A stretch of DNA of 64,000 nucleotides from a virus. The notes below the pieces were generated by a model, which was given only the letters and a program-made list of their open reading frames with translations, searched no databases and was not told the DNA's origin. Below are positions 28,418 to 57,761 of the stretch, one piece after another. Each line of letters begins with the position of its first letter. Positions within the stretch are counted from its first letter, which is position 1. Location of the stretch: positions 3,248-67,247 of IMG/VR virus record IMGVR_UViG_3300028195_000197; one strand, 5' to 3'. The translations under genes and the position numbers were made by a program.

Positions 28418-28432
28418 AAAGGAGATGATAGA

Positions 28433-28711: not shown

Positions 28712-29076
28712 CATCCATCACTTACCATGCGGAGAGTGCGGTCGCTGAAATAGAAGCGGCAGTATTCTCATTTGGTGTTATTGCTTTAGTTAGATAAGTT
28801 ACACATAGGGGGATAGATAGACTGTCTAGTTGTCAAGGGGGAATGATTTGGGGGAGATTAGAAAATGGTTTTATGGGATGGTGCTTGTGTTTTCCTGCCT
28901 TTCATCTTTCCCACAATTCTGACCATATTACTCCACATTCATTTGTGATATATAGTACATGCACATTAATTATTTCTCATAATTCTCTTATGCTCTACTC
29001 ATAGTAGCAGCGGGTTTAATGCTATCATATTGACAGGGGACGGCGCTTGCTGTCCTTACTATCAGAGGAGTTTATT

Positions 29077-29914: not shown

Positions 29915-30289
29915 ATGGATGAGAAAAAAGAATTAGATTGTACTTGCAAACGCTGCCAAGAGATTGACTCTATGCTTGAAAATCCTATACCAGCTTATAA
30001 ATTAACACTGTCAAAACAAGAACGTCAAGCTATAGACTGGGTTGGGTATAGATACTCCAATGGTGACGATCTTTTTGATCTGCTTTGCAAGTGTGATTAT
30101 ATATCAGAACATAAAACATCATGCGCATGGGATTCTGAAAGTGATATTACTTTTCTAATTCCTGAATATATAGCATGGGAAATTGCAGAAAACGCAGAAG
30201 AAGAGGATGGGGATTATGTGTATAATTTCCCGTGTTTTGCTAATGAGTTTGCACATAAACTACGTTTATTTTGTGAGAATTTAGTGTAG
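29915..30289 (+). CDS. Acidic early hypothetical protein
   Basis: AAGGAG RBS. Confidence 0.7.
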   Translation: MDEKKELDCTCKRCQEIDSMLENPIPAYKLTLSKQERQAIDWVGYRYSNGDDLFDLLCKCDYISEHKTSCAWDSESDITFLIPEYIAWEIAENAEEEDGDYVYNFPCFANEFAHKLRLFCENLV

Positions 30290-30305
30290 ATAAGGAGTAA
30301 TAAAG

Positions 30306-30524
30306 ATGGATGATAAAACAGTACTAAAAGGTAAAGAATGGAATGGATATTTTAGACGACACACTGTAGACGTTGGTAAAATGGGAATTATGGAATTATA
30401 CAGTGGCGTAACCCATAAATATCAGAGTATTTATAAAGTAGGCGAGTATTATTTTATTTTCGCTTTCAAGCGAGGATATAAAAATATTAGTACGCTGAAA
30501 AGATTAATTTCTACTCACCTTTAG
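30306..30524 (+). CDS. Early hypothetical protein
   Basis: AAGGAG RBS. Confidence 0.65.
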   Translation: MDDKTVLKGKEWNGYFRRHTVDVGKMGIMELYSGVTHKYQSIYKVGEYYFIFAFKRGYKNISTLKRLISTHL

Positions 30525-30590
30525 TTAGAATCTTAATGTGATGGTATCAGGAGGATTATAAAAAGATACCATCATATTGACATTTTAATT
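30523..30590 (+). repeat. Early-region intergenic hairpin, copy 2
   Basis: AATCTT-AATGTGATGGTATC-AGGAGG loop-GATACCATCATATT-GACATT. Confidence 0.75.
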
Positions 30591-30614
30591 AATCAAATAA
30601 AAAGGAGAAAGGTA

Positions 30615-31085
30615 ATGAGTATTCAATTTAAGCAATTTACAGGGGATATTAATTGGCAAGAATACGGGGGGAAGTTTATCAGTAAGAAATTTAATAATGG
30701 TGATTTTGATTATTACCTAGTATTAAATTTCGTGAATACAGAAGGATTAGAAGAAATAAGCAGTAAGTATCATCTTTCTTTGGACATTGTAGCACCAACT
30801 GAATTTGAAGACTTAAACGGGGCAATGAGCTGTGTTTGTTTTTCAGAATGGGGAGATGAAAACAACCCTATTCATTTAGTAGATGCCATTCACGACTATT
30901 CAGGAGGCGTCACCGCTTGGTGGTTGGAAGGAGATAATTATAAAGAACTTTTCAAAGAAGCACATAAACAGGCAATGACTATTAATGGATTATTTGGTTT
31001 TGTGATGGATAGAGCGCAAAATAGAATTGGCTCTGATGGATGGGATTTTATAAAGGGTGACATTATGGCGGGACTGAATAAATAA
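30615..31085 (+). CDS. Early hypothetical protein
   Basis: GD.NW..YGG; RBS. Confidence 0.7.
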   Translation: MSIQFKQFTGDINWQEYGGKFISKKFNNGDFDYYLVLNFVNTEGLEEISSKYHLSLDIVAPTEFEDLNGAMSCVCFSEWGDENNPIHLVDAIHDYSGGVTAWWLEGDNYKELFKEAHKQAMTINGLFGFVMDRAQNRIGSDGWDFIKGDIMAGLNK

Positions 31086-31150
31086 TTAGAATCTTAATGC
31101 AATTATACGAGGGGGTATAAAAAAGTATGATTGCATTGACATATTAATTA
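31083..31150 (+). repeat. Early-region intergenic hairpin, copy 3
   Basis: AATCTT-AATGCAATTATAC-GAGGGG loop-GTATGATTGCATT-GACAT. Confidence 0.75.
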
Positions 31151-31181
31151 TATTTTACATAATGTAAAAAGGAGAAAAAAG

Positions 31182-31415
31182 ATGAGCGATATTAAAGCCT
31201 TCACCTATAAAGATGATAAACTTTCTTTTGTTGGCAAACTGGTAAAGGGTAAGGTGATATGTCCTGATTGCTATGATGGAAAACATCTTAACAAAAAAGA
31301 TGGATATAATCATGCCGAGTTATTCCTGATTAATGTCTTACCTTATAATCAGCATTGTAATGATTGTAAAAGATTAATCGTTTTTGGTGGTGATAATATG
31401 ATGGATTTATTTTAA
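31182..31415 (+). CDS. Small Zn-binding protein
   Basis: CPDC...CNDC. Confidence 0.65.
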   Translation: MSDIKAFTYKDDKLSFVGKLVKGKVICPDCYDGKHLNKKDGYNHAELFLINVLPYNQHCNDCKRLIVFGGDNMMDLF

Positions 31416-31421
31416 TAATCT

Positions 31422-31464
31422 CTCATACAGAATTAATCTTAATTCCAGGATTCTATATTACAAT
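31422..31464 (+). promoter_or_regulatory. TAAT-box promoter
   Basis: CTCAT-N6-TTAATCT-N19-TACAAT. Confidence 0.7.
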
Positions 31465-31622
31465 CAAAAACATATAAACGAAGGAGAAATATATACATGG
31501 TAAAAAGTAAAAATACACAGTGTAAAAAAGAGAATCTTATTCTCTGGTTGAGCCTATCCGTAGGCTATACGTTTATTGTGTTTGGATTGATTCTATCAGT
31601 AATATAAAAAGGAGATTTTAAA

Positions 31623-31997
31623 ATGAATGCTACAAAAAAAGAAAAACTACAATGGATGTTAGATAATTTATCTACTTATGATGAAGAGAGGGCAGAGGAT
31701 ATTGGCAAAAAAGCATTGCTGGAATCTATTGCAGAAAATATCAGAAAAGAAGCAATTTATCAGCATAACTTAATCCGACATAAATTTAATATGCAATCCC
31801 TAATTGCGGATCATTTGCAAGGTTTACCTAGTTGGTGTGATATTCCTTTTGCTAATTGGGAGATATTAGAACTGTTACGAAGTTGGGGTTATACGTTAGA
31901 TACAGAACAAAAAGAAGATAACGCATTAAATAATTACTGGATGTTTTGCTCAGGATATATTCTCTCATTATTTGAAAAAGAGAATATAAAATTATAA
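31623..31997 (+). CDS. Early hypothetical protein
   Basis: LQGLPS..IPF.N.EI motif; RBS. Confidence 0.7.
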   Translation: MNATKKEKLQWMLDNLSTYDEERAEDIGKKALLESIAENIRKEAIYQHNLIRHKFNMQSLIADHLQGLPSWCDIPFANWEILELLRSWGYTLDTEQKEDNALNNYWMFCSGYILSLFEKENIKL

Positions 31998-32002
31998 ATA
32001 AG

Positions 32003-32062
32003 TAAAATCTTACTATACAGAAATTATCAGGGAGGAGATTTTCTGTATAGTGACATTTTAAA
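32003..32062 (+). repeat. Early-region intergenic hairpin, copy 4
   Basis: AATCTT-ACTATACAGAAA-GGGAGG loop-TTTCTGTATAGT-GACATT. Confidence 0.75.
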
Positions 32063-32085
32063 TATTTACGTAAAAAGGAGAAAAG

Positions 32086-32391
32086 ATGTACACAGAAAAA
32101 ACAAAAGTAATTTTTAGGACATTTAAAGATATTGATGAGGTAATTGCTTTCTTTCCTGAGGAACTAGGTACTAATGATTTAAATACTTGTAATTCCTACA
32201 TGCACATTGGACAGCATGGGAGTGCATATACTCATATTACAAGTAAAACCAGACCATCCACAAAAGAAGAAATTAAACCCATCTATGATGAACTAAAAAG
32301 TATTGGATATAATCTGGTAGTGAAAAAGAAATTCTTGTATAGCCATTTTATCACACGAAGAGACAAACTAAACGCAATCGGGAGAAAATAA
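32086..32391 (+). CDS. Phage early hypothetical protein
   Basis: VIFR..IA.FP..SYMHIGQH..L..IGY. Confidence 0.7.
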   Translation: MYTEKTKVIFRTFKDIDEVIAFFPEELGTNDLNTCNSYMHIGQHGSAYTHITSKTRPSTKEEIKPIYDELKSIGYNLVVKKKFLYSHFITRRDKLNAIGRK

Positions 32392-32933
32392 TGTTTTATA
32401 ATAAATGGGCAGAAAAACAAGCAAAAAGAAATTATGATTCTGACGGGTTAGATTTTACCACTTATAGCCATTGCTATATTTGCGGTAAACCATCAAAAGC
32501 AAAAACCGTCACGCTAAACGGCTTTCATCCTGCTTGTGAGCGTAACGAATTAAAATATAAACCAAATAAAAAGAGCAATTTTAAAGCCCTCGCTAAACTT
32601 CCAAAATTTAATAAATCCTTTCCTATCCTGTCTCATGTATACATCATTGTAAAAAATGGCTTTCTTTGCTTTGTTATGACAGATTTAGAGAAAGTAAAAC
32701 ACGGAATCATAGAAGGGGTAAAGGGAAATTGTAATATATGTGTACCTCGTGATGTTTTTGTTGATACCATCATTCTGTTATCCAATGAAGGAGAAGATTT
32801 TACCATTGCACAGGATGATGAAACCATGAGTATGATTATCAGCACTAAGAACTCCAAAACAACTATTAAGGGAATTGATAAAAAAGAATTTCCAAACATC
32901 AAAGAAATTTTAGATCGTCAAAAGGATGTATAA
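32391..32933 (+). CDS. Zn-finger fused to DNA polymerase III beta-clamp domain I (truncated DnaN-like)
   Basis: CYICGK..HPAC then PILSHV...TDLE...ICVP...IKGID..EFP. Confidence 0.7.
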   Translation: MFYNKWAEKQAKRNYDSDGLDFTTYSHCYICGKPSKAKTVTLNGFHPACERNELKYKPNKKSNFKALAKLPKFNKSFPILSHVYIIVKNGFLCFVMTDLEKVKHGIIEGVKGNCNICVPRDVFVDTIILLSNEGEDFTIAQDDETMSMIISTKNSKTTIKGIDKKEFPNIKEILDRQKDV

Positions 32934-33075
32934 GATTATGAATGATTATAAAAAGAAGTCTCCTCCTGTCACTCATGCGGATTTTTATAAGGCATCACAG
33001 GAGAGATTTTCTCAGTATCTAGTTAGTAAATCCGTACAATTAGCGAAAGATTATACAGTAGAAAAGGAATAACAC

Positions 33076-33285
33076 ATGAACGCAGAAGACCTTTTAGAAT
33101 TCGGTAGACAATTTTCCAATTTGGGATGGTCAATACAAGACCAAATACAAACTATGCTTGATGGAGACTTTAGCGACATTAATCCTAATGCTTTTCGTAT
33201 TGCAAAGCAAAAACTGTCTGGTTATAGTGAGGATTTAGATAATTTCTTGCTTGACTGTGAATTGAATTTGAAACATGAAGATTAA
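33076..33285 (+). CDS. Small acidic hypothetical protein
   Basis: RBS. Confidence 0.6.
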   Translation: MNAEDLLEFGRQFSNLGWSIQDQIQTMLDGDFSDINPNAFRIAKQKLSGYSEDLDNFLLDCELNLKHED

Positions 33286-33368
33286 AATTTTCTAATAAAA
33301 ATCCCTGTTCTACTCATCCAGGATTAATCTACATAGTGTAAAATTACTGTGTAGATAAAAAGGAGAAA

Positions 33369-33596
33369 ATGATGGACGGTAAAATTCACAATAAAGAAAC
33401 TTTGCTTTATGGATGTAAAAAAGAAAGCCCCGATTACATGGAGGAGATTTTGCATCACCAAAAAGGTTATGTAAATAGAGACAAACTAATTTCTGCTTAT
33501 TCAGAATGGGCAGAAGAAAATGGCTATGATAGATTGAGAATTTCTGTTATTGATTTATCTATTCCTCCAGATTTTAAATCCACTGTAAATATTTAG
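33369..33596 (+). CDS. Hypothetical protein
   Basis: AAGGAG RBS; degenerate TAAT-box promoter. Confidence 0.65.
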   Translation: MMDGKIHNKETLLYGCKKESPDYMEEILHHQKGYVNRDKLISAYSEWAEENGYDRLRISVIDLSIPPDFKSTVNI

Positions 33597-33605
33597 GCAA
33601 TTGAA

Positions 33606-33794
33606 ATGAATAAGAAAATAAATCCTTGTCCTTTTTGTAGAAATAAAAACTTTAAACTTTATACAATAGGGCATGGACGATCACATCAAAAAGATATGCT
33701 TCAATGTTTAACACCCACTTGTATTTTACGTTATATTGCTTTTCCAGTTAATGAATGGCAGAAGCAACTAAAAAGGAGAACAGATAATGAATGA
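33606..33794 (+). CDS. Lar-like Zn-ribbon protein
   Basis: PCPFC...C...C...W. Confidence 0.55.
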   Translation: MNKKINPCPFCRNKNFKLYTIGHGRSHQKDMLQCLTPTCILRYIAFPVNEWQKQLKRRTDNE

Positions 33795-34044
33795 GAAAAT
33801 AAAAGAGATTCTGAACGAGATGGAAGATGAATTAATTGAAAATGGATGTTTTCACGAATTAGATTCTTGGGATGATGTCTGCATAATCTTTAATTATCCG
33901 AATTATTGGGATAGCTATCCAGAATTTGCTAGTCAAATTGAACTTGAGACGGAAAATATTTTAGCACTAGAAAATCAACTAAAAGAAGCGGGATTCTCTG
34001 GATTCTTTTGGGTGAATGACTATGTAAAGCACATTAATATTTAG
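33787..34044 (+). CDS. Acidic hypothetical protein
   Basis: AAGGAG RBS. Confidence 0.6.
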   Translation: MNEKIKEILNEMEDELIENGCFHELDSWDDVCIIFNYPNYWDSYPEFASQIELETENILALENQLKEAGFSGFFWVNDYVKHINI

Positions 34045-34264
34045 GAGAAAAAATGACCACTATCGGAATTGTATTTGTAATCGTGCTGATTCTTATCGGC
34101 ATCTATGGAAGCTGGTTTGGATAAACATAATGTTTACCCCTAACGAAAAACTCGCTAACTGTTTCGCTTGTACTCTCGCTCCTGTAATGAGAGTATGCAA
34201 CATGTGTGATTTTAGATGTTACAGCCCGTTAGAGATAAAGAAGATCAATACTAAGAAATATATT

Positions 34265-34307
34265 CTTATCCTAAATTAATCTTAGGATTATCTACATGAT
34301 GTAAAAT
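34265..34307 (+). promoter_or_regulatory. TAAT-box promoter with overlapping CTACATGATGTAA operator
   Basis: CTTAT-N6-TTAATCT-N19-TAAAAT. Confidence 0.7.
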
Positions 34308-34332
34308 GGATAAGAATTAAAGGAGAAGAAAG

Positions 34333-34995
34333 ATGAAACTATCAGAAAAAACCATCTTTGAAGAAGTGAAAGATTTGGAAGTGAAAAACCGTGAACGTCT
34401 CTTGGAACTTTACACTGAACCCCGTGTAATCGGCATCATTGGTGATATAGGAACATCCAAAAGCAACACTGCATACTTCATCATAGATCAACTTTTAGAA
34501 AGATATGATATGAACCTTTACACTTTTGGATTGAGAAAAAAGATAAAGGGAGCGATTGCAATTTATCAGGTGTCTGAATTAGAGAAGTTGCGTAACGCTA
34601 TAATCTTTTTAGACGAAGCCAATTTATTGCTGGACATTGAAAACAGAACGAAGAAAAAGAAAATTCAAGAAATGTTTCAACTATTAGCGCATAATAATTG
34701 TCATGTTACTTTGATTAGCCCTCCTAACACGTTCAAGAAATTTCTAGCTGCAAAACTTACAGCTATGATTTTGCACGAGATTACAATCGCTCAATGTATC
34801 AATCGCTCTTATGTAGCAGATACCGTACAAACGTACAGCGGATTAGAGAGAGGTTCTACTATGCTCTCATTGCCACGAGGCAAGGCTATCATCTTCGATG
34901 GAGACCATTATCATCCTGTTTCTATACCATACGTTCAGGAAGCAGATACGAAAAAAGATAATCCATCACTACTGAGACCAAAAATAAAAGGTTAG
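34333..34995 (+). CDS. P-loop ATPase (ASCE; Zot/FtsK-HerA-like)
   Basis: IGIIGDIGTSKS, IIFLDEA. Confidence 0.75.
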   Translation: MKLSEKTIFEEVKDLEVKNRERLLELYTEPRVIGIIGDIGTSKSNTAYFIIDQLLERYDMNLYTFGLRKKIKGAIAIYQVSELEKLRNAIIFLDEANLLLDIENRTKKKKIQEMFQLLAHNNCHVTLISPPNTFKKFLAAKLTAMILHEITIAQCINRSYVADTVQTYSGLERGSTMLSLPRGKAIIFDGDHYHPVSIPYVQEADTKKDNPSLLRPKIKG

Positions 34996-35055
34996 AAAAA
35001 CCGTAATGGTTCTTGTAAAATGTCCTGTAAAATGTAATGAAAAAGGAGAAATAAA

Positions 35056-35301
35056 ATGCGAGAAATTGTAGGAGCAAAAATTGGTTCAATTATTACCAAC
35101 ATTCCGTCTAAAATCTTTGATGCAGTTGAAAAAGGAAGAATCACGAAATTCTTATCTAAGAAGGAAATGCAATTTATGAGTAATTGTGACTTAGGGAAGA
35201 AATGGGATGACATGGCGAAATCTCCTGTATTGTTTGTGATTGATGATGAAAACGAGAAAGTGTATCCTCCAGACCATCTTTCAAAGGAGCTAGAAGAATG
35301 A
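35056..35301 (+). CDS. Hypothetical protein
   Basis: AAGGAG RBS. Confidence 0.6.
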   Translation: MREIVGAKIGSIITNIPSKIFDAVEKGRITKFLSKKEMQFMSNCDLGKKWDDMAKSPVLFVIDDENEKVYPPDHLSKELEE

Positions 35302-35519
35302 ACTTCCCCACTCTTACAGCCCTAAAAACCTGGGCAGACTATAAACTTCCTGTCTATCTTCCTTTTGACCTAGAAGAAGTAGACACAACACAAAGAGACC
35401 TTCCTAGAGACATCGTAGAGATGCAGAAGGATGGAATGTTTCACTACTTCAAAGAAGATGGGGGATTTCACCTCCTGATGAGTAGTAAAAATAGTTTAGT
35501 AGAAGGAGAAATAGAATGA
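35298..35519 (+). CDS. Hypothetical protein
   Basis: AAGGAG RBS. Confidence 0.6.
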   Translation: MNFPTLTALKTWADYKLPVYLPFDLEEVDTTQRDLPRDIVEMQKDGMFHYFKEDGGFHLLMSSKNSLVEGEIE

Positions 35520-35779
35520 AAGAAGGTGATTTGAGAGTGTGGCATATCCCACAAATTCCTGGAGATGCTTTTTATGTTCCTGTTTCTTCTCCAGAAGAAG
35601 CTGGAAAGTTGCTGAATACCTTAGCACAATATGACCTATTCCAGTATGAGAACAATATAAAACCTGATTACTCTAATGCGTCTGGTTTAGAAGTTGTTGA
35701 ATCTGGTGAATGGTGCGAATGGTATAGCAAATATGACGAAGATATTGACGAGTATTTAGAAGCTGAAATAGATGAATAA
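35516..35779 (+). CDS. P22 gp17-like superinfection-exclusion-bypass protein
   Basis: LRVWHIPQIP...YDLFQYENNIKPDYSNA.GL closely resembles recalled P22 gp17. Confidence 0.8.
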   Translation: MKEGDLRVWHIPQIPGDAFYVPVSSPEEAGKLLNTLAQYDLFQYENNIKPDYSNASGLEVVESGEWCEWYSKYDEDIDEYLEAEIDE

Positions 35780-35993
35780 AAAATACGAATTCCTTGTATC
35801 AGATGATAAGAAGTCATGTGTAATCTTCTCCCTACGCCCCTACAAGCGTCTAGGAACGGTTACACGGACTAATGGCTCTCGTAGCATACAAACATTCGCT
35901 CCAGGTGTTACGTGGCTTCCTGTTTACAAAGCATTAGAAGCAATGGGAGCGATTACTAAAGAAGAATCAATCTTGAAACAATTAGGAGTTTGA
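35772..35993 (+). CDS. Hypothetical protein
   Basis: Coupled ORF. Confidence 0.55.
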   Translation: MNKKYEFLVSDDKKSCVIFSLRPYKRLGTVTRTNGSRSIQTFAPGVTWLPVYKALEAMGAITKEESILKQLGV

Positions 35994-36165
35994 AAATGAA
36001 ACTGATTAGACTTTGTAAATGTCGAGTATGTACCGCTTTATTTTTACGACATCCTTTCAATAAAGATTTACAAGAATTACAAGTTTGTGGAAAGACTTGT
36101 AAACGTCTAGCAGAGTTGACAGATAAAGCAGATGCGCATTTAGAATTTTTAGGAGAATTTCTGAA

Positions 36166-36474
36166 ATGAGCATGAAAATGAAACCAGATGACCCCGCTTA
36201 TTGGATGTTAGTTGACGGAATAGAAACAATTCCTACTACCCACAATAAGTTTTGTTATATATGTAATGACCCTGAATTTGCACAGATGGGACTTCCTCTT
36301 TGTTATGAATGTGTAATTTGTGATGCTCACGTTCCAGCAGATGATATTGAATGTGATAATGGACACATGCAACCAACTTGTCCAGAAGAAGATTACGAAA
36401 TAAGAAAAAAGTATGGCTTAGAAATTTCAAAAGACCTTCTTGAATATATGGAGAAAGGAGATAAACAAGAATGA
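36166..36474 (+). CDS. Cys-rich hypothetical protein
   Basis: CYIC, C..C..C..H, C. Confidence 0.6.
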   Translation: MSMKMKPDDPAYWMLVDGIETIPTTHNKFCYICNDPEFAQMGLPLCYECVICDAHVPADDIECDNGHMQPTCPEEDYEIRKKYGLEISKDLLEYMEKGDKQE

Positions 36475-36716
36475 AATTTAAAAATGGTGAGATAAAAGCC
36501 CCTACTGGATTAGATTGGGTATTCAATTTTGGTAAGTATAAAGATGAACAGCCTACTATCCGTGAACTTTTAGATCGTGACCCTTCCTATGTTGTCTGGT
36601 GCTGTGAAAATTTGGATTGGTTTGATGTAGATGCTTATATCTATGATATGGCATTGGAGAAAGACACCAGCTGGTATCGTAGCGGAGAAGATGGCGATAG
36701 ATTTTCAATCTACTAA
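36471..36716 (+). CDS. ExoX C-terminal/DUF3820-like small domain
   Basis: FGKYK...I.E...DPSY..W. Confidence 0.7.
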   Translation: MKFKNGEIKAPTGLDWVFNFGKYKDEQPTIRELLDRDPSYVVWCCENLDWFDVDAYIYDMALEKDTSWYRSGEDGDRFSIY

Positions 36717-36727
36717 AGGAGAATAAA

Positions 36728-36955
36728 ATGAACTGTAACAGATGCAAACATAGAGAATATACACTATGTAAAAACCCCAAGAATTTCCAGCCTCGCTTTA
36801 GGCAATATAATCGTGTGAAGCAGTTGAGCAAGGTGAACTTCCCAATCCCCCCTGTATGGTGTAAAGGATTCGAGCCAATGTTTACTATTATCTTACAGGG
36901 AAGTGATTTTTCTGTACCTTGTCCAAGTGATCCCCCGCATTGGGAAATTCTCTAA
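36728..36955 (+). CDS. Cys-containing hypothetical protein
   Basis: AAGGAG RBS. Confidence 0.55.
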   Translation: MNCNRCKHREYTLCKNPKNFQPRFRQYNRVKQLSKVNFPIPPVWCKGFEPMFTIILQGSDFSVPCPSDPPHWEIL

Positions 36956-36994
36956 TCCAATATTAATCTTCTATAATAGATTTAATGTTATTAT
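36952..36994 (+). promoter_or_regulatory. TAAT-box promoter
   Basis: CTAAT-N6-TTAATCT-N19-TATTAT. Confidence 0.75.
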
Positions 36995-36999
36995 ATAGT

Positions 37000-37209
37000 T
37001 AGTGATGGCGGTGTGGAAAGCTAGTCGGTAACGTCTAGGCGACTTGGAGACACACAGCCAAGAGAGTTGTGAAAGACTGATATTGACATTGTGCATGGTA
37101 AGTCGGTTGAGTAACTACCCAAAGGCGTAAGAATAAGCACAATGCACAGAAAATACGAAAGTATGCCTAATAGCGGGTTCACGCAGGATTAGCGACCTGC
37201 CCATCACTA
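37000..37209 (+). ncRNA. ~210-nt tRNA-shaped non-coding RNA
   Basis: TAGTGATGG/CCATCACTA terminal helix; GCAGG-8nt-CCTGC arm abutting it; D-like GTGTG/CACAC; starts about 6 nt after -10 box. Confidence 0.7.
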
Positions 37210-37233
37210 GGAATTATTTTATAGGAGAATTAT

Positions 37234-37539
37234 ATGGAAGATAAATACGTGGAAGTGGAAGTTTATGGGACAGTAACTATTCCTGGCACATTCTATGAAG
37301 GGTTTGCGGAGTGGTATTATTTACTACACCCTCGTCCAGTGGAAAGAGATAGCTGGATGTCGGATGACACTTACATGTTCCATGTAGTAAGTGTGCGAGG
37401 TAAGCCTCACGATATTATAGTAAAAGGGGCATTTCTTATAAATTATCATGTAGCAGGAAAAAAGATTGATATAAAAGATGTGTCATTACAAGAACATTTA
37501 GACTTATTTGGTTCAGAAGTAGAAAAGGAGAAAGAATAA
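37234..37539 (+). CDS. Hypothetical protein
   Basis: AGGAG RBS. Confidence 0.6.
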   Translation: MEDKYVEVEVYGTVTIPGTFYEGFAEWYYLLHPRPVERDSWMSDDTYMFHVVSVRGKPHDIIVKGAFLINYHVAGKKIDIKDVSLQEHLDLFGSEVEKEKE

Positions 37540-38342
37540 TGAAATATTCAAAAGGTAATGGTGGTGGGGGAAAATGGGTTAGCGGTAAGGCTCGTTTTGA
37601 AGAACGTAATGGAACATGGAAAGTTATCTTTGCTCCAAAGAAACAAGGTGATGAACCTAAGAGCTATAAATTTCCAGATTCCTTGCTTCCTGAATATCCA
37701 GAGAAGGTTGAGATTGGGACTAAATACTTTGTAGTTATTGTTCTTGAAGCTGGTGCTGATGGAGAAGCTACTAGCAAAGTAGAAAAAGTCTCTGATATTC
37801 GCCCACTTATGTGGGTAGATGAAAAGATGAAGATTGTAGATTGTACTCGTGAAGGCAATAAGCCAGAAGGTACACCTAAATTCTATTCAAAGAAATCTAC
37901 TTACAAAGAAGACGAAGAAGTTCACATGGTAAACTGGATGTTTGAATTCCAGGAAGGTGATTACAAAGGTGTACGAGTTCCTTATAATGTACATTATCGC
38001 TTTACGGCAGATGAGAACGGAGAAGCTGTCTACGATTTCTCGGAATATGTCTACAATCTTCCCCAAGCAACTCGTGTCCATCAAATAGTAAATTTCTACG
38101 ATAAGATGTTGGGAGTGTTGGACACTCCGATTGTATGGGAAGAAGATGGAAACATCATTCCTACTCTCTATGGTCGCATTTTGGCAGCGGATAAAACTTT
38201 CCTAGTCACAGGTGTAAATGGTTGGATTGACGATTTGGAAGTAATTGATGTTCCTGAACCTGCTCCTGAGCCTGATGTAGAGAAAGAAGACCACACTGTA
38301 ACTGACATTCATCCAGAAGACGAATTACCAGAAGAATGGTAA
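37539..38342 (+). CDS. Putative single-stranded DNA-binding protein
   Basis: Beta-rich, acidic tail ending EDELPEEW; precedes primase; followed by terminator. Confidence 0.55.
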   Translation: MKYSKGNGGGGKWVSGKARFEERNGTWKVIFAPKKQGDEPKSYKFPDSLLPEYPEKVEIGTKYFVVIVLEAGADGEATSKVEKVSDIRPLMWVDEKMKIVDCTREGNKPEGTPKFYSKKSTYKEDEEVHMVNWMFEFQEGDYKGVRVPYNVHYRFTADENGEAVYDFSEYVYNLPQATRVHQIVNFYDKMLGVLDTPIVWEEDGNIIPTLYGRILAADKTFLVTGVNGWIDDLEVIDVPEPAPEPDVEKEDHTVTDIHPEDELPEEW

Positions 38343-38363
38343 ATCGTTGTAAGTAAACTTTAC

Positions 38364-38390
38364 AAAAGAGGATGCTAACCCATCCTCTTT
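38364..38390 (+). terminator. Rho-independent terminator
   Basis: AAAAGAGGATG-CTAACC-CATCCTCTTTT. Confidence 0.8.
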
Positions 38391-38402
38391 ATTTTACATA
38401 AA

Positions 38403-39281
38403 ATGGCTAAAGAAAACCCAACACTACAAAGAGAGTTATTTGATTTGTTAGATGGAGCATATTGGCTCGATAATTCCCGCTACTTTGCTTGCTACTGCCC
38501 GATAGAATCTCATGCTAAACAAGCTCTTATGGTTTATGTAGATGGTTGTTGGTGCGCTTCTTGTAATCGCTCATATTCCCTTGAGTACATAAAGAGTAAA
38601 TCTTCTTCCCTGCCAACATCATATCGTCCCACGATAGTAGAATACAGAACACTTCCTAGATGGAGACAGTGGGAAAAGAGATATGGAGATTTGCAGGGGA
38701 TCGCTGATGCAGCACATAAAAATCTTCTAAAGATTAAAGCCACTTATTTCAAAAATCGTGGATTAGAAGGGTATATAAAGAAAGCCCATTACGGTCTTAT
38801 GGATGGATTTGCTGTTATTCCTGTATTTGATAAAGAACATAATGTGATTGACATAGTGTGTAGGTCTATCAAACAGCAAAATGTGAAATATGCGGTAGCT
38901 AGTATTTCAGAGAATGAAATTCGTCCACTGTATTGTTTAGATTGGGACTTAGTGATGAGAAGTCAGAAAGTCTATGTAGTCTTTGGGATTTTCGATCTCA
39001 CAGCTTTTGACATTCTAGGATTGCCTTGTTTAACTGGGATCACTGGTAAGTCCATAAATCCTTCCCTGTTCGATGAATTTCCAGGAAAAGAGTTTGTAAT
39101 TGTCCCCGATAGAAACGAAGAAAAAGATGCTTACAAGTTGGCTTCAAATTTGGGATGGCGAGGTTCAGTATTGAGAGTGAACTATCCTTTCAAGATAAAA
39201 GATATGGATGAGTTGAGACGGAGTACATCTCCTAATGAATGGAAGCGTCTTTATGAAGGCGAATGGAGTAAAGATGAGTGA
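38403..39281 (+). CDS. DnaG-like primase (Zn finger plus atypical TOPRIM)
   Basis: CP..H...C..C; RG, IPV, KY; VFGIFD; PD; KD.DE. Confidence 0.75.
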   Translation: MAKENPTLQRELFDLLDGAYWLDNSRYFACYCPIESHAKQALMVYVDGCWCASCNRSYSLEYIKSKSSSLPTSYRPTIVEYRTLPRWRQWEKRYGDLQGIADAAHKNLLKIKATYFKNRGLEGYIKKAHYGLMDGFAVIPVFDKEHNVIDIVCRSIKQQNVKYAVASISENEIRPLYCLDWDLVMRSQKVYVVFGIFDLTAFDILGLPCLTGITGKSINPSLFDEFPGKEFVIVPDRNEEKDAYKLASNLGWRGSVLRVNYPFKIKDMDELRRSTSPNEWKRLYEGEWSKDE

Positions 39282-39501
39282 TACTATTGAAACTATGAGC
39301 TATGAACAACTTAGACATTATCTAATAACGGAAGGATGTGAACCTAGTCTATATAAACGTGGGCATTTATATAGAGCGCATGTAAATAGGGGGGGTAATT
39401 TTTGGGAAGACGCAGAAACCCCCATAAAAGCCTTGCGGAAAGCATCTATGTTGTGGGTAAATAGTGGTAGATGGGAAAGAGCGACAAAGGATACATTATG
39501 A
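39274..39501 (+). CDS. Hypothetical protein
   Basis: GGAG before ATG 39274; fills primase-helicase gap. Confidence 0.5.
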   Translation: MSDTIETMSYEQLRHYLITEGCEPSLYKRGHLYRAHVNRGGNFWEDAETPIKALRKASMLWVNSGRWERATKDTL

Positions 39502-40736
39502 ACTGGTACGATCAAAGCCAAATAGTTTTCGGACTTATAGCCTTAAAGAAAATCAAGCATCACTCAGTTCTTCCAAAGAATCTCTATCCTCCATTTGATA
39601 CGCCAGTGGCGTACATGCACGAAAATCCTGAATGGGAAGTTGAAGACCTCCACCTCAAGTTCCAATCTAACGAGTGGGAAATTGCTATGAACGCCGCTCG
39701 TAGTCTAAATGGTACAGCAACCAGTGTAAACTGGGCGAGAGACCTGGAAAAGATGCGTATTATGTGGGAAACAGGGGCTAAACTCACTAAAACAGGAGAT
39801 AAACTACAGAAAGGGGAAGATGTAGAAGTTCTTTCTATTGTTAGTGACTTGAAGATGATGTCCGTGACCGAGGAAATAGGTCTGCATGTGGCATCAGAAG
39901 TAGATTTGACAGATGTTGTAGCATTGCAGAAATGTGGATGGAAAGAAATAGATGAAACATTTGGTGGAATACCTGCCAGTGGCCCTCTTGTAGTTTATGC
40001 TACCACTAAAACTGGTAAATCTTTTTGGATTTCAAAACTTATTAATGAGTTCCTGCATTATTATCCTGAAAAACGTGCTACAGTGTTTTCGTTAGAAATG
40101 GCATATAAGCGGTATCTAAAGCGTTCATTTGATATGTACCCATCACTTAAAGAAGTTTCAGATCGTTTACTTGTGACCAGTAGAGCATCTAATATGAAAG
40201 AAGTTATAGCGATTACCTCCACAGAACCCACAGACCTGGTGGTTATTGATGGCATTGCTGATGCTGTAATGGGAGAAAAGTCTGCATCAAAGATGGATGA
40301 AGCCTGGAGTGATGTAAAGAGAATGGGTAGAATGTTAGAAATTCCAGTAGTAGCAGTAGCACAGCCTAATAGAGCATCTAAATTCAATTCTCAAGAGCAA
40401 TTTATAGGCCGTTACGATATTGAATGGTCGGGAGCGGCAGAAAACGCAGCAGAAATGATGATAGCACTTCAATATCTAGGCACTAATGCTAGGATTGAAA
40501 ATAAAATCTTTCCTGTAGTTGAAGATTCTTATTACATGATAAATTATTTCTCCCGTGACAGTGAGAATATTGGAGCAGTTATTTTAGATAAGCATGTATC
40601 TTCACCAGAAGGGAGACGATTATGGGAAAGTTCTGCTCATGGCATAACAAAAAATGGTGAGATTGTTCCTCAACTCTATAAAGAAGGATTGTACAAAGCA
40701 GAGGGAAGTAATTCTAGTAGTAGGGCAAAACGATGA
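39498..40736 (+). CDS. DnaB-like (SF4) replicative helicase
   Basis: ATTKTGKS, FSLEM, VVIDG, AQPNR, SG..E..A; start MNWYDQ after AAGGA. Confidence 0.85.
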   Translation: MNWYDQSQIVFGLIALKKIKHHSVLPKNLYPPFDTPVAYMHENPEWEVEDLHLKFQSNEWEIAMNAARSLNGTATSVNWARDLEKMRIMWETGAKLTKTGDKLQKGEDVEVLSIVSDLKMMSVTEEIGLHVASEVDLTDVVALQKCGWKEIDETFGGIPASGPLVVYATTKTGKSFWISKLINEFLHYYPEKRATVFSLEMAYKRYLKRSFDMYPSLKEVSDRLLVTSRASNMKEVIAITSTEPTDLVVIDGIADAVMGEKSASKMDEAWSDVKRMGRMLEIPVVAVAQPNRASKFNSQEQFIGRYDIEWSGAAENAAEMMIALQYLGTNARIENKIFPVVEDSYYMINYFSRDSENIGAVILDKHVSSPEGRRLWESSAHGITKNGEIVPQLYKEGLYKAEGSNSSSRAKR

Positions 40737-40987
40737 AAAATCTGCAAAGGTTCATGTTCTCTGGCGAACGGGCAAATGGAAATGGAATTATTTCTGGTTT
40801 CTTTCTTATCTGGAACGATGTTCCTGTAATATTGGAATATAGAAACGGGGCTGTTATAGGACATGAGGTAATAGTAGGAACATTGGCAAGATTAAATGAA
40901 GATGTCTGGGAAGGGAGAAGTGTTTGTACATGTGAATACCCAGACACCATGTTTAGTGTCTGTCATTGTGGTAAAGTGTTACTCTAA
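40733..40987 (+). CDS. Hypothetical protein
   Basis: ATGA coupling. Confidence 0.5.
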   Translation: MKNLQRFMFSGERANGNGIISGFFLIWNDVPVILEYRNGAVIGHEVIVGTLARLNEDVWEGRSVCTCEYPDTMFSVCHCGKVLL

Positions 40988-41026
40988 CCTGAAATTAATC
41001 TTCATTTACATTATGTAAAGTATAAT
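40984..41026 (+). promoter_or_regulatory. TAAT-box promoter with TTACATTATGTAA operator in spacer
   Basis: CTAAC-N6-TTAATCT-N19-TATAAT. Confidence 0.75.
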
Positions 41027-41049
41027 GTTGGAGAGTAAAGGACAGAACG

Positions 41050-41262
41050 ATGTTAGTTAGAGAATTCTTATCGCGAGGATATACCCAATGGGTAGAAGTT
41101 CATTATTCCATTGCTGGAACTACTGAGCAAGCTAAACTTTGGTTTGCTGATAAAGGTCTCTCTGGTGAATTCTTCCCCATGTATTTCAATGAACCTGATG
41201 AAGATAAACCAAGAGAAGGAAGATTTGGGTTTTGGTTGCCAATAACGAAGGAGAAAAGATGA
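41050..41262 (+). CDS. Hypothetical protein
   Basis: AAGGA RBS. Confidence 0.55.
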   Translation: MLVREFLSRGYTQWVEVHYSIAGTTEQAKLWFADKGLSGEFFPMYFNEPDEDKPREGRFGFWLPITKEKR

Positions 41263-41684
41263 GAGAGCTAAAGTTTCGAGCTTGGTATCATAAAGGAACT
41301 TATTGCAAAGAGCCTAAGATGTACTGGTTTGATTTGATGTGGGGGAATACTTCGCAGCAAGGGTCTGGATGGATTGGAATGTTGCCCATTGGAGAAACAA
41401 GAAAATACAGAATGATGGGGGATAACAGAAAGCAGATTGACCCTGATGATTGTGAGATTATGCAGTTCACTGATTATCAAGACATGAATGGCGTTGGTAT
41501 TTGCGAAGGGGATTTGGTTCAAGATGAACAATATATCAAAGAGATCGTTTTCCATAAAGGTGTATTTACAGTAAAGAATACAGATTCAAGGTTTGCTTTA
41601 CCTGCATCTGGCGACTATCTCAGAGTATATGGACATAGCCTTGAAGTTGTCGGAAATATCTACGAGAATCCTGAATTATTATGA
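41259..41684 (+). CDS. YopX-family protein
   Basis: MRELKFRAW, MQFT..D.NG..I.EGD, EVVGNIYENPELL. Confidence 0.9.
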   Translation: MRELKFRAWYHKGTYCKEPKMYWFDLMWGNTSQQGSGWIGMLPIGETRKYRMMGDNRKQIDPDDCEIMQFTDYQDMNGVGICEGDLVQDEQYIKEIVFHKGVFTVKNTDSRFALPASGDYLRVYGHSLEVVGNIYENPELL

Positions 41685-43414
41685 AATCAATTAGAGACCT
41701 GCCCATAAAAATCATACATGAAATCCCTCCTGTACTCAGTAGCAAAGAAAAATGTGCAATTGATACAGAATGGTTTTTGATGGATAAGGATAGACTTCAT
41801 CGTCCTGTACTCACTGATGGCTCACCAAATGGATTTTTAGCGTGTGTGACTTTCTGCTTCAATGGTGAGGATGTGTATTTCGTAACCAATCCTGATGATG
41901 TTCAGGAAGCAATGGACAATGTATCAGAGGCTACACAAATTTACGCAAATTGCAAATTTGATCTTGTTCATCTTCGTAGACATGCTCATATTCCAGTTAG
42001 AATAAATAAACTTTGGGATGTAATCACACTAGACCGCATCATGTGGTCTGGTCTCTATTCCAGCTTTACTTTAGCTGACATTACTAGACGCAGATTACAC
42101 ATGCACCTTCCTAAAGAAGACAGGAAGGATTTTGCTAAAGCGGATAAACTTACTCCTGAATTGGAGCAGTATAGTGCCTACGATCCTGTGGCAACGTGGC
42201 ACGTTTATCAACATCAAATCCGTGACGTTCTAAAGAATGACCCTAATGCTCTAAAACTATGGGCAGAAGTAGACCTTCCTGCTCTAAATACCGTTATGTC
42301 CATGAAAGGTTTCAAAGCCAATAAAAATTTGTGGTATGAAATTGCAGATGAGAACATGGAAAAGAAAACTTCTCTGCAATCTAAATATGATATAAATCTA
42401 CGGTCAGCAAAACAAGTAGGGGAATTATTAGCTTCTCAGGGCATTGAACTTCCTAAAACCGCCAAGGGAAACTACTCTACAGCAATAAAGACATTAGAAG
42501 GTATGGAAGACCCTAATGAAACTATTTTAGACCTGATTGAACTATCATCTCTGAAATCTAAGACAACTACTTATGGTAGAGGATTTATGGAGAATTCTGT
42601 AGAGCCAGATAACAGGATTTACGCAGACTTCAATCCTCTTCGAGCTGCAACTGGTCGCTTCGGATGCTCAAAACCTAATCTACAAAACGTACCTAATAAA
42701 TACACTGACCCTAGATATAGAGAGTGCTTTATAGCAGGAGAAGGAAACGTGTTAGTAGTAGGAGATTGGTCATCTCAAGAACCTAGAGGTGGTGCATATC
42801 TAGCACAAGATCAGACTATGATAGATATTTTCAATGACGATAAAGATATTTACATTGAATCTGCTCGTCTTATGTTTGGATGGGAATTGACTAAAGATGA
42901 CCCTAGAAGAAGTCACCCCATCAAGCCAGTTGTTTTGGGCGCATTTTATGGTCTGACGAAACATGGTCTATTCAATAACAACCAGATACCTAAAGATGAA
43001 GGTGAGAAACTTCTCAATAAGTTCTTTGAAGTGTTTCATGGAGTAGCTGATTGGATTGATGAAATGAGAGATGGTAGAGAGTATGTTGAAACTATCATGG
43101 GCAGAAAGTATTGGCTAAATCCTTATGACTACAAGAGCAGGAACAATGCTTGCAATTCTCCTGTACAAGGGTCTGCCAGTGACGCTATGAAGATGGCTGG
43201 ATGGGAGTTTGTGAAGCAATGGGGTGACTTAGAACACTCTCCTATCGTAAACTTTGTCCACGATGAAATGATAATTGAAGTTGCAGAAGAAGATAAAGAT
43301 AGAGCCATGACGTTACTAGACGAATGTATGGTGTCTGTAGCTGAAAAGATGCACCCAGGTGTCAAAGCTCGTGCAGATATAGGGTTCGGGCAAAATTGGA
43401 GTGCAAAAGCGTAA
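41681..43414 (+). CDS. polA: Family A DNA polymerase with 3'-5' exonuclease
   Basis: IDTE, FD, YD; TGR....PNLQN, DWSSQEPR, K...LG..YG, NSPVQGSASD, VHDE. Confidence 0.93.
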   Translation: MKSIRDLPIKIIHEIPPVLSSKEKCAIDTEWFLMDKDRLHRPVLTDGSPNGFLACVTFCFNGEDVYFVTNPDDVQEAMDNVSEATQIYANCKFDLVHLRRHAHIPVRINKLWDVITLDRIMWSGLYSSFTLADITRRRLHMHLPKEDRKDFAKADKLTPELEQYSAYDPVATWHVYQHQIRDVLKNDPNALKLWAEVDLPALNTVMSMKGFKANKNLWYEIADENMEKKTSLQSKYDINLRSAKQVGELLASQGIELPKTAKGNYSTAIKTLEGMEDPNETILDLIELSSLKSKTTTYGRGFMENSVEPDNRIYADFNPLRAATGRFGCSKPNLQNVPNKYTDPRYRECFIAGEGNVLVVGDWSSQEPRGGAYLAQDQTMIDIFNDDKDIYIESARLMFGWELTKDDPRRSHPIKPVVLGAFYGLTKHGLFNNNQIPKDEGEKLLNKFFEVFHGVADWIDEMRDGREYVETIMGRKYWLNPYDYKSRNNACNSPVQGSASDAMKMAGWEFVKQWGDLEHSPIVNFVHDEMIIEVAEEDKDRAMTLLDECMVSVAEKMHPGVKARADIGFGQNWSAKA

Positions 43415-43416
43415 CT

Positions 43417-43459
43417 CTCATACAGAATTAACAATTACATTGTGTAATTATGGTAAGAT
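43417..43459 (+). promoter_or_regulatory. TAAT-box promoter with TTACATTGTGTAA operator
   Basis: CTCAT-N6-TTAACAA-N19-TAAGAT. Confidence 0.7.
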
Positions 43460-43477
43460 TTACGAAAGGAAAAATAA

Positions 43478-43981
43478 ATGAATTGCCCACACTGTAACAA
43501 AACTCTCGTTCTCCCTTCTGGTTATAGAGAATCTAAGATCCTCATTATAAGAGATGAACCTTATAAGACAGAGTATTCAGACTATAAACGTCCAAGATTT
43601 AAGCCTCACTCTACTCCTAAATCCATCCTGCAAGATGAAATGTTCAGATTAGGAGTAGATTTCAGTCAAGTAAGAATAGCTAATCTGTGGCAGCATGTTC
43701 CTAATAAGAAAGAAGAGTGTTTCCAGGAAATGAAGAAATCTCTCTTTGCTGAAACTAGAGGAAAGAAAGCTATTCTTTTAGCTGGAGCAGATGTAGTGAA
43801 ATTCTTTACGGGGTATAATGTATCCGAGATTAGCGGATTACAAGTAGAAAGTAATAAACTTTCTGCACCTATTGTCTTTGCTAGTGTAGACCCTACCACT
43901 GCCATGAGTAGAGGAATGGGAGAGATCAGATTTTCAATAGAGAACTTTGTGAAGAAATTGATTGAAGAGGATGTTTTATGA
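43478..43981 (+). CDS. Uracil-DNA-glycosylase family 4-like domain (degenerate motifs)
   Basis: CxxC..LV.P.G...KILI..EP...E, V.IAN, ILL.G. Confidence 0.6.
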   Translation: MNCPHCNKTLVLPSGYRESKILIIRDEPYKTEYSDYKRPRFKPHSTPKSILQDEMFRLGVDFSQVRIANLWQHVPNKKEECFQEMKKSLFAETRGKKAILLAGADVVKFFTGYNVSEISGLQVESNKLSAPIVFASVDPTTAMSRGMGEIRFSIENFVKKLIEEDVL

Positions 43982-44676
43982 CAGAAATGATGACCGCTAG
44001 AGTACTTATTGATGGAAAGACCATTACACGAAAAGATTTTGAGTCTGCTGCTGATGATGTCATTCGAGAATTGAAGGAAACTGGAAATGTGGAAGGGGTA
44101 AATAATGCGTTAGTGACTTTGAACGGGCTAGGTCAATTTTCTGTTTTCCTTTCGTGCAAGGTTTTATATGGGTACAGTTCTTGGTGGAAAGACACAAACC
44201 AAGATGAGATAAGGGGAGATAACTTCTTTGACTATATAACGTCTTTGCAATTACATGGATTAGCAAATCCTCTCACAATCGAAAGGTACATAAATTTGTG
44301 GGAACATTATGAACGTGGCACGTTACTAGAGGAAATAAAAAATAGACCCCTTTCTGAACAAATTGCTATCGTAGCAGTAGTAGAAGATGATAGATACCAT
44401 ATCAATGATGATGATTGGGAAGAATTAGTAGATGCTGCCAATGGCACAGAAATTCGTAGGATTTTACGGAAGATAAAAGGTAAAGAGCCTACAAAAGGTT
44501 CTTATGTCCTTCACTTAGGTAGAGATGGAGAATTGTACGTTTGGCATCAAGGACAGAGAGTTTATTGGGGACAGGTGAAACTTCCTAATGGAACTACTGA
44601 CCCTATTGAAAAAAGAGTGATAGAGAAGATGTGTAATCGTTTGAAGAATGGTAGTATGAGTCCTATAGTGGACTAA
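43978..44676 (+). CDS. Hypothetical protein
   Basis: Long coupled ORF. Confidence 0.65.
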   Translation: MTEMMTARVLIDGKTITRKDFESAADDVIRELKETGNVEGVNNALVTLNGLGQFSVFLSCKVLYGYSSWWKDTNQDEIRGDNFFDYITSLQLHGLANPLTIERYINLWEHYERGTLLEEIKNRPLSEQIAIVAVVEDDRYHINDDDWEELVDAANGTEIRRILRKIKGKEPTKGSYVLHLGRDGELYVWHQGQRVYWGQVKLPNGTTDPIEKRVIEKMCNRLKNGSMSPIVD

Positions 44677-44688
44677 AAGGAGAATAAA

Positions 44689-45021
44689 ATGTTTGAAGAA
44701 TATAGAAAAGCCTATGATGAGATGGAAGCAGAGATTATAAATCTGAGAGCTAATATTTTTAATTTGCAGTGCCTTCTGAGAGATGCAGAAGGAAAATATC
44801 GTCCTCGTATGGATGAAGCAGAGAAAACAATTAAAGATGCTGTGTTGAAACAAGAAAATAATGTTACTTTACATGATGTATATGCAAAATTCACTAAAGG
44901 TAGAGTAACTACATCTTGGAAGAAAGTTGCAGTTGCTTGTGAAGCTCCACAAGAAATTATTGATGCTAACACAAAGCAGGGGAAGCCTTCTGTTTCTGTA
45001 AGTGTATTAGAGGAGAATTAA
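44689..45021 (+). CDS. Coiled-coil protein (Gam/gp157-like, weak)
   Basis: N-terminal coil, PSVSV end, next to recombinase. Confidence 0.45.
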   Translation: MFEEYRKAYDEMEAEIINLRANIFNLQCLLRDAEGKYRPRMDEAEKTIKDAVLKQENNVTLHDVYAKFTKGRVTTSWKKVAVACEAPQEIIDANTKQGKPSVSVSVLEEN

Positions 45022-45022
45022 T

Positions 45023-46259: not shown

Positions 46260-46353
46260 ATTGGACAAAATTAGTCCAATTCAACGTTTAGCCAAATACC
46301 CGTAGAAAATTTTTCCAGATTTTGCTCTTTTCGCAATATTTCATTGAGACAAA

Positions 46354-47079: not shown

Positions 47080-47080
47080 A

Positions 47081-47701: not shown

Positions 47702-47711
47702 AATCTATATC

Positions 47712-56407: not shown

Positions 56408-56444
56408 TATTTGGTATATTATACTACAAAACTGCTAACTCATG

Positions 56445-57759: not shown

Positions 57760-57761
57760 TT

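Follow-up and report, generated by a model that had tools for sequence, protein, structure and literature searches.

The element described here occupies positions 37000-37209 (+ strand) of a 64,000-nucleotide stretch of viral DNA (positions 3,248 to 67,247 of the IMG/VR record IMGVR_UViG_3300028195_000197), which is referred to in its whole length as the window. It is a G+C-rich, structured RNA domain that is represented in RNA libraries, stands at the head of a set of replication genes and belongs to no known RNA family. The reading that we favor, at somewhat better than an even chance, is that of a cis-acting, structured 5' untranslated leader of a replication-gene mRNA, in which position it would probably act as an mRNA stabilizer or a translational operator. 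The virus record comprises 67,247 bases at an estimated completeness of 68%. Near-identical DNA is present in many marine and seawater sequencing runs, with at least half of the sampled words found in 14 of the 20 runs listed, for which 16 studies are named.

The element lies in a 278-nucleotide gap (36956-37233) within a + strand gene block that spans approximately 24.7-47.4 kb. A 75-amino-acid open reading frame (ORF) is located upstream of the gap, and downstream follow, in this order, a 101-amino-acid ORF (37234-37539, +), a 267-amino-acid ORF (37539-38342, +) and genes for a primase-like protein, a DnaB-like helicase, YopX, a family-A DNA polymerase and a RecA/UvsX-like protein. The start of the 267-amino-acid ORF overlaps the stop of the 101-amino-acid ORF (TAATG). 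The only + strand terminator-like site in 30000-48000, a hairpin followed by a T run (38365-38390, +), is found just behind the 267-amino-acid gene, which suggests that the leader heads a two-gene unit fronting the replication block; the hairpin may mark the end of this unit.

The two ends of the element constitute a perfect inverted repeat of 9 base pairs (bp) (I9, TAGTGATGG/CCATCACTA). Its strands, 37000-37008 and 37201-37209 (+), form the closing helix P1, with the core GTGATGG/CCATCAC at 37002-37008/37201-37207; the pair probability of P1, computed over the Boltzmann ensemble for a transcript that begins at 37001, is 0.54-1.0. Helices of at least 8 bp that join the first three nucleotides to a partner at least 150 nucleotides away occurred in 4 of 400 dinucleotide shuffles, a test whose end points were picked with the helix already known; by this measure the end-to-end helix appears to be an unusual feature of the element. 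A predicted hairpin, AUAC-GAAA-GUAU with a GNRA tetraloop (37153-37164, +), has a pair probability of 0.63-0.75. These two are the only helices that are robust in the predictions, and the remainder of the variable, G+C-rich interior (37009-37200, +) would adopt a multi-branched and poorly determined fold.

Islands of high G+C content in A+T-rich genomes are a mark of structured RNA. The G+C content of 37000-37209 is 46.7%, as compared with 36.8% for the window, and ranks in the top 0.8% of all 210-nucleotide windows; it falls to 15.9% in the upstream flank (36956-36999) and to 20.8% downstream (37210-37233). The downstream segment, an A+U-rich linker on the + strand, carries an AGGAG Shine-Dalgarno sequence (37223-37227) ahead of the ATG at 37234 and, in the folds predicted, forms no pairs with the leader. 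P1 ends, on its 3' side, 14 nucleotides ahead of the Shine-Dalgarno sequence.

The 20 runs listed include six RNA libraries, of which four (from three studies) were aligned, as Logan contigs, to positions 36400-37900. Each run yielded one contig of 100% identity over the leader, namely 37011-37266 in run X15 (depth 40.4), 37043-37299 in X16 (depth 3.79), 37021-37287 in X17 (depth 6) and 37047-37286 in X18 (depth 3.3). The neighboring contigs of X15 have depths of 7.5-8.8, as compared with 40.4 for its leader contig. Neither 36400-36692 nor 36763-37010 was covered in any of the four runs, and carry-over of DNA should have covered these segments too; a hole in coverage is no proof by itself and was considered jointly with the contig starts (37011-37047). 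All four contigs bridge 37209/37210 by 57-90 nucleotides and reach into the 101-amino-acid ORF. Since they cross the 3' strand of P1, the structured domain is physically part of the message, which fits a 5' untranslated region and speaks against a cleanly excised RNA of 210 nucleotides. A preliminary description of this DNA had proposed a discrete non-coding RNA, possibly matured by RNase P or RNase Z; RNA from the element is indeed represented in all four libraries examined, but the read-through into the ORF lends such maturation no support. The contigs establish that unprocessed RNA exists and are blind to a processed fraction.

The contigs share a recurrent end within the sequence AC/AUU at 37286-37287 (+), where those of X17 and X18 end (at 37287 and 37286, respectively) and where a contig of X15 starts (at 37287) after an adapter. 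The ends come from three studies and lie 53 nucleotides inside the 101-amino-acid ORF; their coincidence is a weak hint, and the position may be an endonucleolytic cleavage site. AC/AUU fits the RNase E motif RN/WUU as given in PMC5222698, although this motif is common in A+T-rich sequence. Strain polymorphism from 37320 onward may also break contigs. Ends tagged with an adapter occur at 37043 and 37287, in both cases with the read-2 adapter ahead of + strand sequence, which would be a weak hint of + sense RNA if the libraries were dUTP-stranded.

Relatives of the leader were reached through the 267-amino-acid protein, which has 10 close clusters; a scan of JGI metagenome contigs yielded eight loci, five of which extend to the leader. 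Two of the five (L002 and L003) are 100% identical to the window across the 278 nucleotides. The other three (L005, L006 and L008), with flanking proteins 84-88% identical to those of the window and flanking genes 83-88% identical, represent a second leader type. They keep the upstream 42 nucleotides of the gap (81%) and its last 24 nucleotides (91.7%), whereas the interior is unalignable and measures 117 nucleotides versus 212 in the window, with a G+C content of 45.5%. The domain fills the gap between two blocks that are conserved in relatives, one on the promoter side and one comprising the ribosome-binding tract.

Both types have in common the 5' strand GUGAUG, the 3' strand CAUCA and an identical 12-nucleotide hairpin, AUACGAAAGUAU, which is the GNRA hairpin described above; it is placed directly after the 5' strand of P1 in the second type and near the 3' end in the window. 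The closing helix predicted for the second type (GUGAUGAG/CUCAUCAU) reaches pair probabilities of 0.88-1.0 and differs from that of the window by a compensatory exchange of G-C for A-U at helix position 7 and of G-C for G-U at position 1; on the - strand, the G-U pair would become a C-A mismatch. Of 400 shuffles, 10 had a helix comparable to this one. The sole polymorphism among the three second-type copies (G1479 in L005, A in L008) is located in a predicted hairpin loop. The family of the 101-amino-acid protein consists of only three protein clusters, among which it is 84-99% conserved.

Two side observations concern the same loci. Between 36471 and 41192 the comparison of the window with L002 and L003 shows a recombination mosaic among co-occurring strains with a mean identity of 93%. 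Its perfect runs (36693-37804, 38820-39638 and 40578-41192) are separated by segments in which 10-28 of every 100 nucleotides differ, and one indel-rich spot lies at 36658-36692. The second-type phages carry approximately 400 extra bases (L005 2654-3052) between the genes for the 267-amino-acid and the primase-like protein, at a place that corresponds to 38343-38348 of the window; the window has just the terminator-like hairpin there.

Upstream of the element a promoter-like extended -10 element, TGTTATTAT (36986-36994, +), ends 6 nucleotides before A37001. It presumably represents the extended -10 pattern TGnTATAAT; in L005 it is kept as TGATACTAT, and TGnTAyTAT is common to both leader types. 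Transcription would accordingly start at about A37001 (G1397 in L005), and the RNA of either type would then have a base-paired 5' end that leaves 0-1 nucleotides free. A further conserved block (36946-36971, +), at about -55 to -30 of the presumed start, is the same at 25 of 26 positions in L005, L006 and L008, as compared with 74.7% identity in the rest of the flank, and has no second copy in the window when up to three mismatches are allowed; judged by its conservation and position, it may be a -35/UP element or an activator site.

In the model that we propose, RNA polymerase would initiate at the extended -10 promoter at approximately 37001 and transcribe the unit of the 101- and 267-amino-acid ORFs, the latter being translationally coupled to the former, ahead of the genes for primase, helicase and DNA polymerase. 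The 5'-terminal nucleotides of this RNA would pair with the segment 14 nucleotides 5' of the Shine-Dalgarno sequence and close a G+C-rich domain of approximately 210 nucleotides in the window and 110 nucleotides in the related phages, while the ribosome-binding site (RBS) would stay in the unstructured, A+U-rich tract. With its 5' end buried in a helix and followed by a stable folded domain, we infer, the + strand message would be shielded from 5'-end-dependent decay, which would also explain the recovery of the leader piece by the RNA assemblies; the domain would insulate the RBS and could be a landing site for a regulator. Two unrelated interiors in the same frame suggest a generic structural role instead of a specific ligand pocket, and the GAAA hairpin, which both have kept, points to one specific contact, be it tertiary or with a protein. 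If this holds, the element is a structured leader of no assigned class that stands where a block of small ORFs gives way to replication genes in an uncultured marine phage. The two unrelated G+C-rich folds, set in the same frame with a common P1 and GNRA hairpin, would then be a natural experiment on what a phage leader needs. The leader reading opens no long-standing question.

Several known systems resemble such a leader in part. Stem-loops at the 5' terminus stabilize mRNAs, for example in the 5' untranslated region of ompA, and known 5' stabilizers are arranged in the way proposed here, with a buried 5' end and a stable domain ahead of an open RBS tract. A stabilizer of this type shares with the element the paired 5' end (presumed here for both types) and would agree with the leader piece being the best assembled, but the partner strand lies 190 nucleotides downstream (95 in the second type) and encloses a multi-branched domain, not a simple hairpin. 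Riboswitch leaders are similar in their P1-closed, multi-branched domain, here a G+C island ending 14 nucleotides before the Shine-Dalgarno sequence; they differ in that neither leader type matches an Rfam family and that no alternative terminator or anti-Shine-Dalgarno pairing was found. The lack of conservation of the interior between close relatives argues against the ligand pocket of a riboswitch. The leader of gene 32 in phages T4 and RB69 likewise combines a folded 5' element with an A+U-rich RBS tract in a well-represented replication message, and its operator sequence has diverged between close relatives. It differs in the size of the fold (about 28 nucleotides, versus 110-210 here), in the linker (shorter here, at 24 nucleotides), in a pseudoknot, not shown here, in the intervening 101-amino-acid ORF and in the 267-amino-acid protein, which has no sequence similarity to gp32 and a weak OB-like match.

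A number of observations weigh against the leader interpretation. The minimum free energy (MFE) structure has a frequency of 0.0002 in the ensemble, so the fold of the interior is poorly determined. Folding energies on the + strand (z = -1.41 for the element, with 18 of 200 shuffles folding as well; -0.35 for 37001-37300; and -0.81) are no better than those of shuffled sequences, and on the - strand the energy is better than in shuffles (z = -2.83, 0 of 200 shuffles). The start motif, read as a -10 box about 6 nucleotides upstream in the preliminary description, can be recognized as an extended -10 element but is absent from the list of a sigma-70 two-hexamer scan, which gives no + strand site for it; the same scan lists a promoter-like site on the - strand at 37345-37316, and a - strand transcript from there would fit the covered span equally well. 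Logan contigs carry no strand, start, end or level, and their depth cannot rank parts of the region. The comparison of the leaders involves two independent sequence types and is qualitative, these being too few for covariation statistics: P1 is kept in the homologous leaders that were collected, but the two closing helices share ancestry and adjoin conserved flanks. The identity of L002 and L003 was discarded as a signal of selection, because the identical run extends over 1112 nucleotides (36693-37804) and includes coding sequence. Finally, 110-210 nucleotides of structure exceed what protection of the 5' end needs, for which a simple hairpin suffices.

The 267-amino-acid protein bears on the possible regulators of the leader. 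Neither it nor the 101-amino-acid protein matches a Pfam or PHROG family or has a usable match in the Protein Atlas, and a profile search of PDB sequences with the former found nothing; its family comprises 47 representative clusters at E<=0.001 in a large library. The AlphaFold (AF2) model (predicted local distance difference test, pLDDT, 77.5; predicted template modeling score, pTM, 0.71) is made up of beta-rich domains, among them an N-terminal beta-barrel; residues 239-267 form an acidic, disordered tail that ends in W. Foldseek searches of PDB and BFVD with this model gave no match at E<=0.001, the weak top rows being LEF-3, RPA, SSB and DUF669. For residues 6-92, VIA-align gave Z values of 4.4-6.3 to the barrels of EF-P, cold-shock proteins, PriB and SSB, and none of Z>=8. 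A single-stranded-DNA-binding role, by way of a putative oligonucleotide/oligosaccharide-binding (OB) fold, is accordingly just a plausible guess with roughly even chances; the family is uncharacterized and may be a new one of phage single-stranded-DNA-binding proteins.

This assignment matters for a mechanism of the gene 32 type, which we regard as unlikely. As outlined in PMC535899, the folded 5' element of the T4 gene 32 message nucleates binding of gp32, which spreads over the A+U-rich RBS tract; the message is given there as unusually stable and the operator sequences of T4 and RB69 as diverged. Here, the fold would nucleate the 267-amino-acid protein, which would spread over the A+U tract and the RBS and repress the 101/267-amino-acid unit once free protein exceeds single-stranded DNA. 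The order of a folded 5' element and an unstructured tract of 20.8% G+C that holds the RBS agrees with this, as do the conservation of the linker (91.7%) while the fold was swapped, in the way the T4 and RB69 operators diverged, and, for the protein, the beta-barrel domain (Z 4.4-6.3), the acidic disordered tail, the place in the replication block and the TAATG overlap. However, its assignment as a DNA-binding protein is weak, with no match by Foldseek at E<=0.001, by VIA-align at Z>=8, or in Pfam, PHROG or PDB sequences; the gene directly behind the leader is the 101-amino-acid ORF and not that of the 267-amino-acid protein; and the A+U tract measures 24 nucleotides versus more than 40 in T4. 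To a similarly low degree we consider that a small RNA acting in trans is derived from the leader, a cut at about 37286/37287 freeing a 5' fragment of approximately 286 nucleotides that would serve as a regulator, decoy or scaffold. The leader contig was assembled in all four RNA runs and is deeper than its neighbors in X15, the recurrent ends fit the RNase E motif, and the closed G+C-rich island resembles other stable RNAs, but contig depth and ends are weak evidence, the polymorphism from 37320 could break contigs, and a mere decay intermediate would look alike. A bolder version is slightly less probable: the element would belong to a new family of modular phage RNAs, a swappable cassette with the same P1 and GAAA hairpin that is released as a stable, trans-acting RNA of about 290 nucleotides. 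If this were true, with the cut at about 37286/37287, the RNA would accumulate in infected marine bacteria and might, for instance, titrate a host RNA-binding factor or nuclease, and the differing cassettes of sister phages would be alternative solutions in an arms race.

It is also improbable, in our judgment, that the interior is functionless filler, a swapped or fast-evolving segment such as the remnant of an inserted element, with the helix and the hairpin left over from common descent. The wholly different interiors between flanking genes of 83-88% identity, the population structured as a recombination mosaic, the ordinary z-scores and the existence of two types only would suit this explanation. 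Both interiors are, however, G+C islands (46.7% and 45.5%); their genomes have 37-38% G+C, and most other intergenic gaps have 18-37%. In addition, both types keep the end-to-end helix with its compensatory pair and the GNRA hairpin while the rest changed, and the element is single-copy, has no target-site duplication that would mark a miniature inverted-repeat transposable element (MITE), and is well represented as RNA in the libraries. Still less credit is given to antitermination in the manner of the put sites of phage HK022, in which the RNA would modify RNA polymerase to read through 38365-38390 into the primase, helicase and polymerase genes. HK022 put consists of two stem-loops. The domain does lie immediately 3' of the promoter, and the single + strand terminator-like hairpin, 38365-38390, separates the unit from the primase gene. 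Neither leader type, though, has an Rfam match that reaches its threshold, and the structure is not conserved from one type to the other, contrary to what one would expect of an RNA that has to fit RNA polymerase.

The least credible of the explanations, which we hold to be barely conceivable, is the tRNA mimic of the preliminary description, on its own or as the special case of a trans-acting leader RNA. Its complementary segments are all present and P1 is perfect over 9 bp, but of the cloverleaf-like fold built from them only P1 and the GNRA hairpin are robust. The other arms have pair probabilities of 0.04-0.22, and the full fold, when forced, has a free energy of -52.9 kcal/mol, as compared with -56.2 kcal/mol for the MFE structure, and an ensemble probability of approximately 0.0007. 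The 'D-like' stem GTGTG/CACAC (37011-37015/37051-37055, +) pairs with a probability of 0.11-0.12, the inner hairpin AGTCG/CGACT (37023-37027/37040-37044, +) with 0.11-0.16 and TGTGCAT/ATGCACA (37090-37096/37142-37148, +) with 0.04-0.05, the last value being low because the MFE structure takes the shifted register CATTGTGC/GCACAATG. The 'T-like' arm, the hairpin GCAGG-AUUAGCGA-CCUGC (37183-37200, +, with the strands 37183-37187/37196-37200), adjoins the 3' strand of P1 and is part of the MFE structure, yet its pair probability is just 0.20-0.22; its loop of 8 nucleotides, as against 7 (TTCRA) in the T-loop of a tRNA, has no T-loop motif, and the second type, whose predicted fold contains neither a D-like nor a T-like layout, has a long-range 6-bp helix in that place.

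The likeness to tRNA and tRNA-like RNAs thus consists of a terminal helix of 7-9 bp, an abutting 5-bp hairpin, which together would give a coaxial stack of 12-14 bp, and a 2-nucleotide linker after the 5' strand. A stack of acceptor and T arms (7 + 5 bp) is the smallest substrate for RNase P, RNase Z and the CCA-adding enzyme. The element lacks a cloverleaf, a T-loop, a D-loop, a D-T elbow motif, a CCA end and identity elements, and approximately 125 nucleotides replace the anticodon arm; the sequence bears out the preliminary description in that it has no TTC loop, encodes no CCA and contains no G3-U70 pair. ARAGORN found 0 tRNA or tmRNA genes in the window (1-64000), and Rfam cmscan of 36900-37300 at E<=10 gave no tRNA match, the hits being snoZ175 (18.4 bits, gathering threshold 43) and the S15 leader (12.1 bits, gathering threshold 39.5), which are chance matches far below threshold. 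No Rfam family reached its gathering threshold in the element, in agreement with the earlier remark that the family was not recognized, and int-alpA was the only one to do so in the whole window; in the second leader type (L005 1330-1600) five hits were obtained, all far below threshold. A search of the literature on structured RNAs of marine phages and on tRNA-like decoys of phages did not find the element, which is no proof of its absence from print. What the leader interpretation retains from the preliminary description is a structured, G+C-rich RNA domain just 3' of a promoter and at the head of a replication-gene block.

Other candidate explanations of the gap were tried and rejected. A hidden gene is not indicated, since none of the six ORFs of 28-53 amino acids in the gap is common to the second leader type, and the three of the six that were searched had no Pfam or PHROG match at E<=1. 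Sequestration of the RBS by the region upstream of the promoter, by which read-through transcripts would be kept from translation, was dismissed: with 500 shuffles per type, 14.8% for the window type and 11.2% for the second type reached a duplex energy as good. A repeated, nut-like protein site is not supported either: the GNRA 12-mer has one exact copy in the window and one copy with a single mismatch at the end of the + strand gene block (47371-47382, +, ATACGAAAGCAT), where the mismatch would break one stem pair, and this copy number is not significant (0.39 expected; two or more copies in 5 of 100 shuffles). For a MITE the 9-bp inverted repeat is present, but there is no flanking direct repeat (target-site duplication) and only one copy in the 67-kb record; no further copies of the element were found in the phage collection or among viral contigs. 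A replication origin is contradicted by the G+C-rich composition and by the absence of iterons, the only direct repeat being a pair of 18-mers of 72% identity. Turning points of the cumulative GC skew fall near 24 kb and 47 kb, tracking gene orientation, and not at 37 kb.

The region is distant from cultured phages. A blastn search of 50,697 phage records with the 278-nucleotide gap gave no match, nor did tblastn of the 267-amino-acid protein against cultured phages. For the family-A DNA polymerase there are 2746 matching phage records, all below 60% identity; in the 15 of them that were listed, identity does not exceed 27.7%. Scans of IMG/VR viral contigs with proteins, alignments and DNA patterns (records of the same genome excluded) and one alignment-based scan of genome contigs found no relatives. 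The sole megablast match of 34000-41000 to cultured phages is a stretch of 68 nucleotides (35622-35689) in 14 N4-like records, 87% identical to the region of the superinfection-exclusion gene (gp18) of Escherichia phage N4 and 13 relatives.

Other G+C-rich 'gaps' in the window (28304-28432 and 28712-28842) and the 650-nucleotide gap 2592-3241 do not resemble the leader; they have the look of coding sequence missed by a crude gene map. The int-alpA RNA match (56339-56410, -) scores 40.5 bits (threshold 35.8) over the full length of the model (1-71) and is located upstream of a 79-amino-acid ORF (55967-56206, -) without a Pfam family. Near its right end (57082-63806) the window has a cluster of genes for an HNH endonuclease (57082-57825, -), an N6/N4 DNA methylase (58110-59102, +) and a C-5 cytosine methylase (62601-63806, +).

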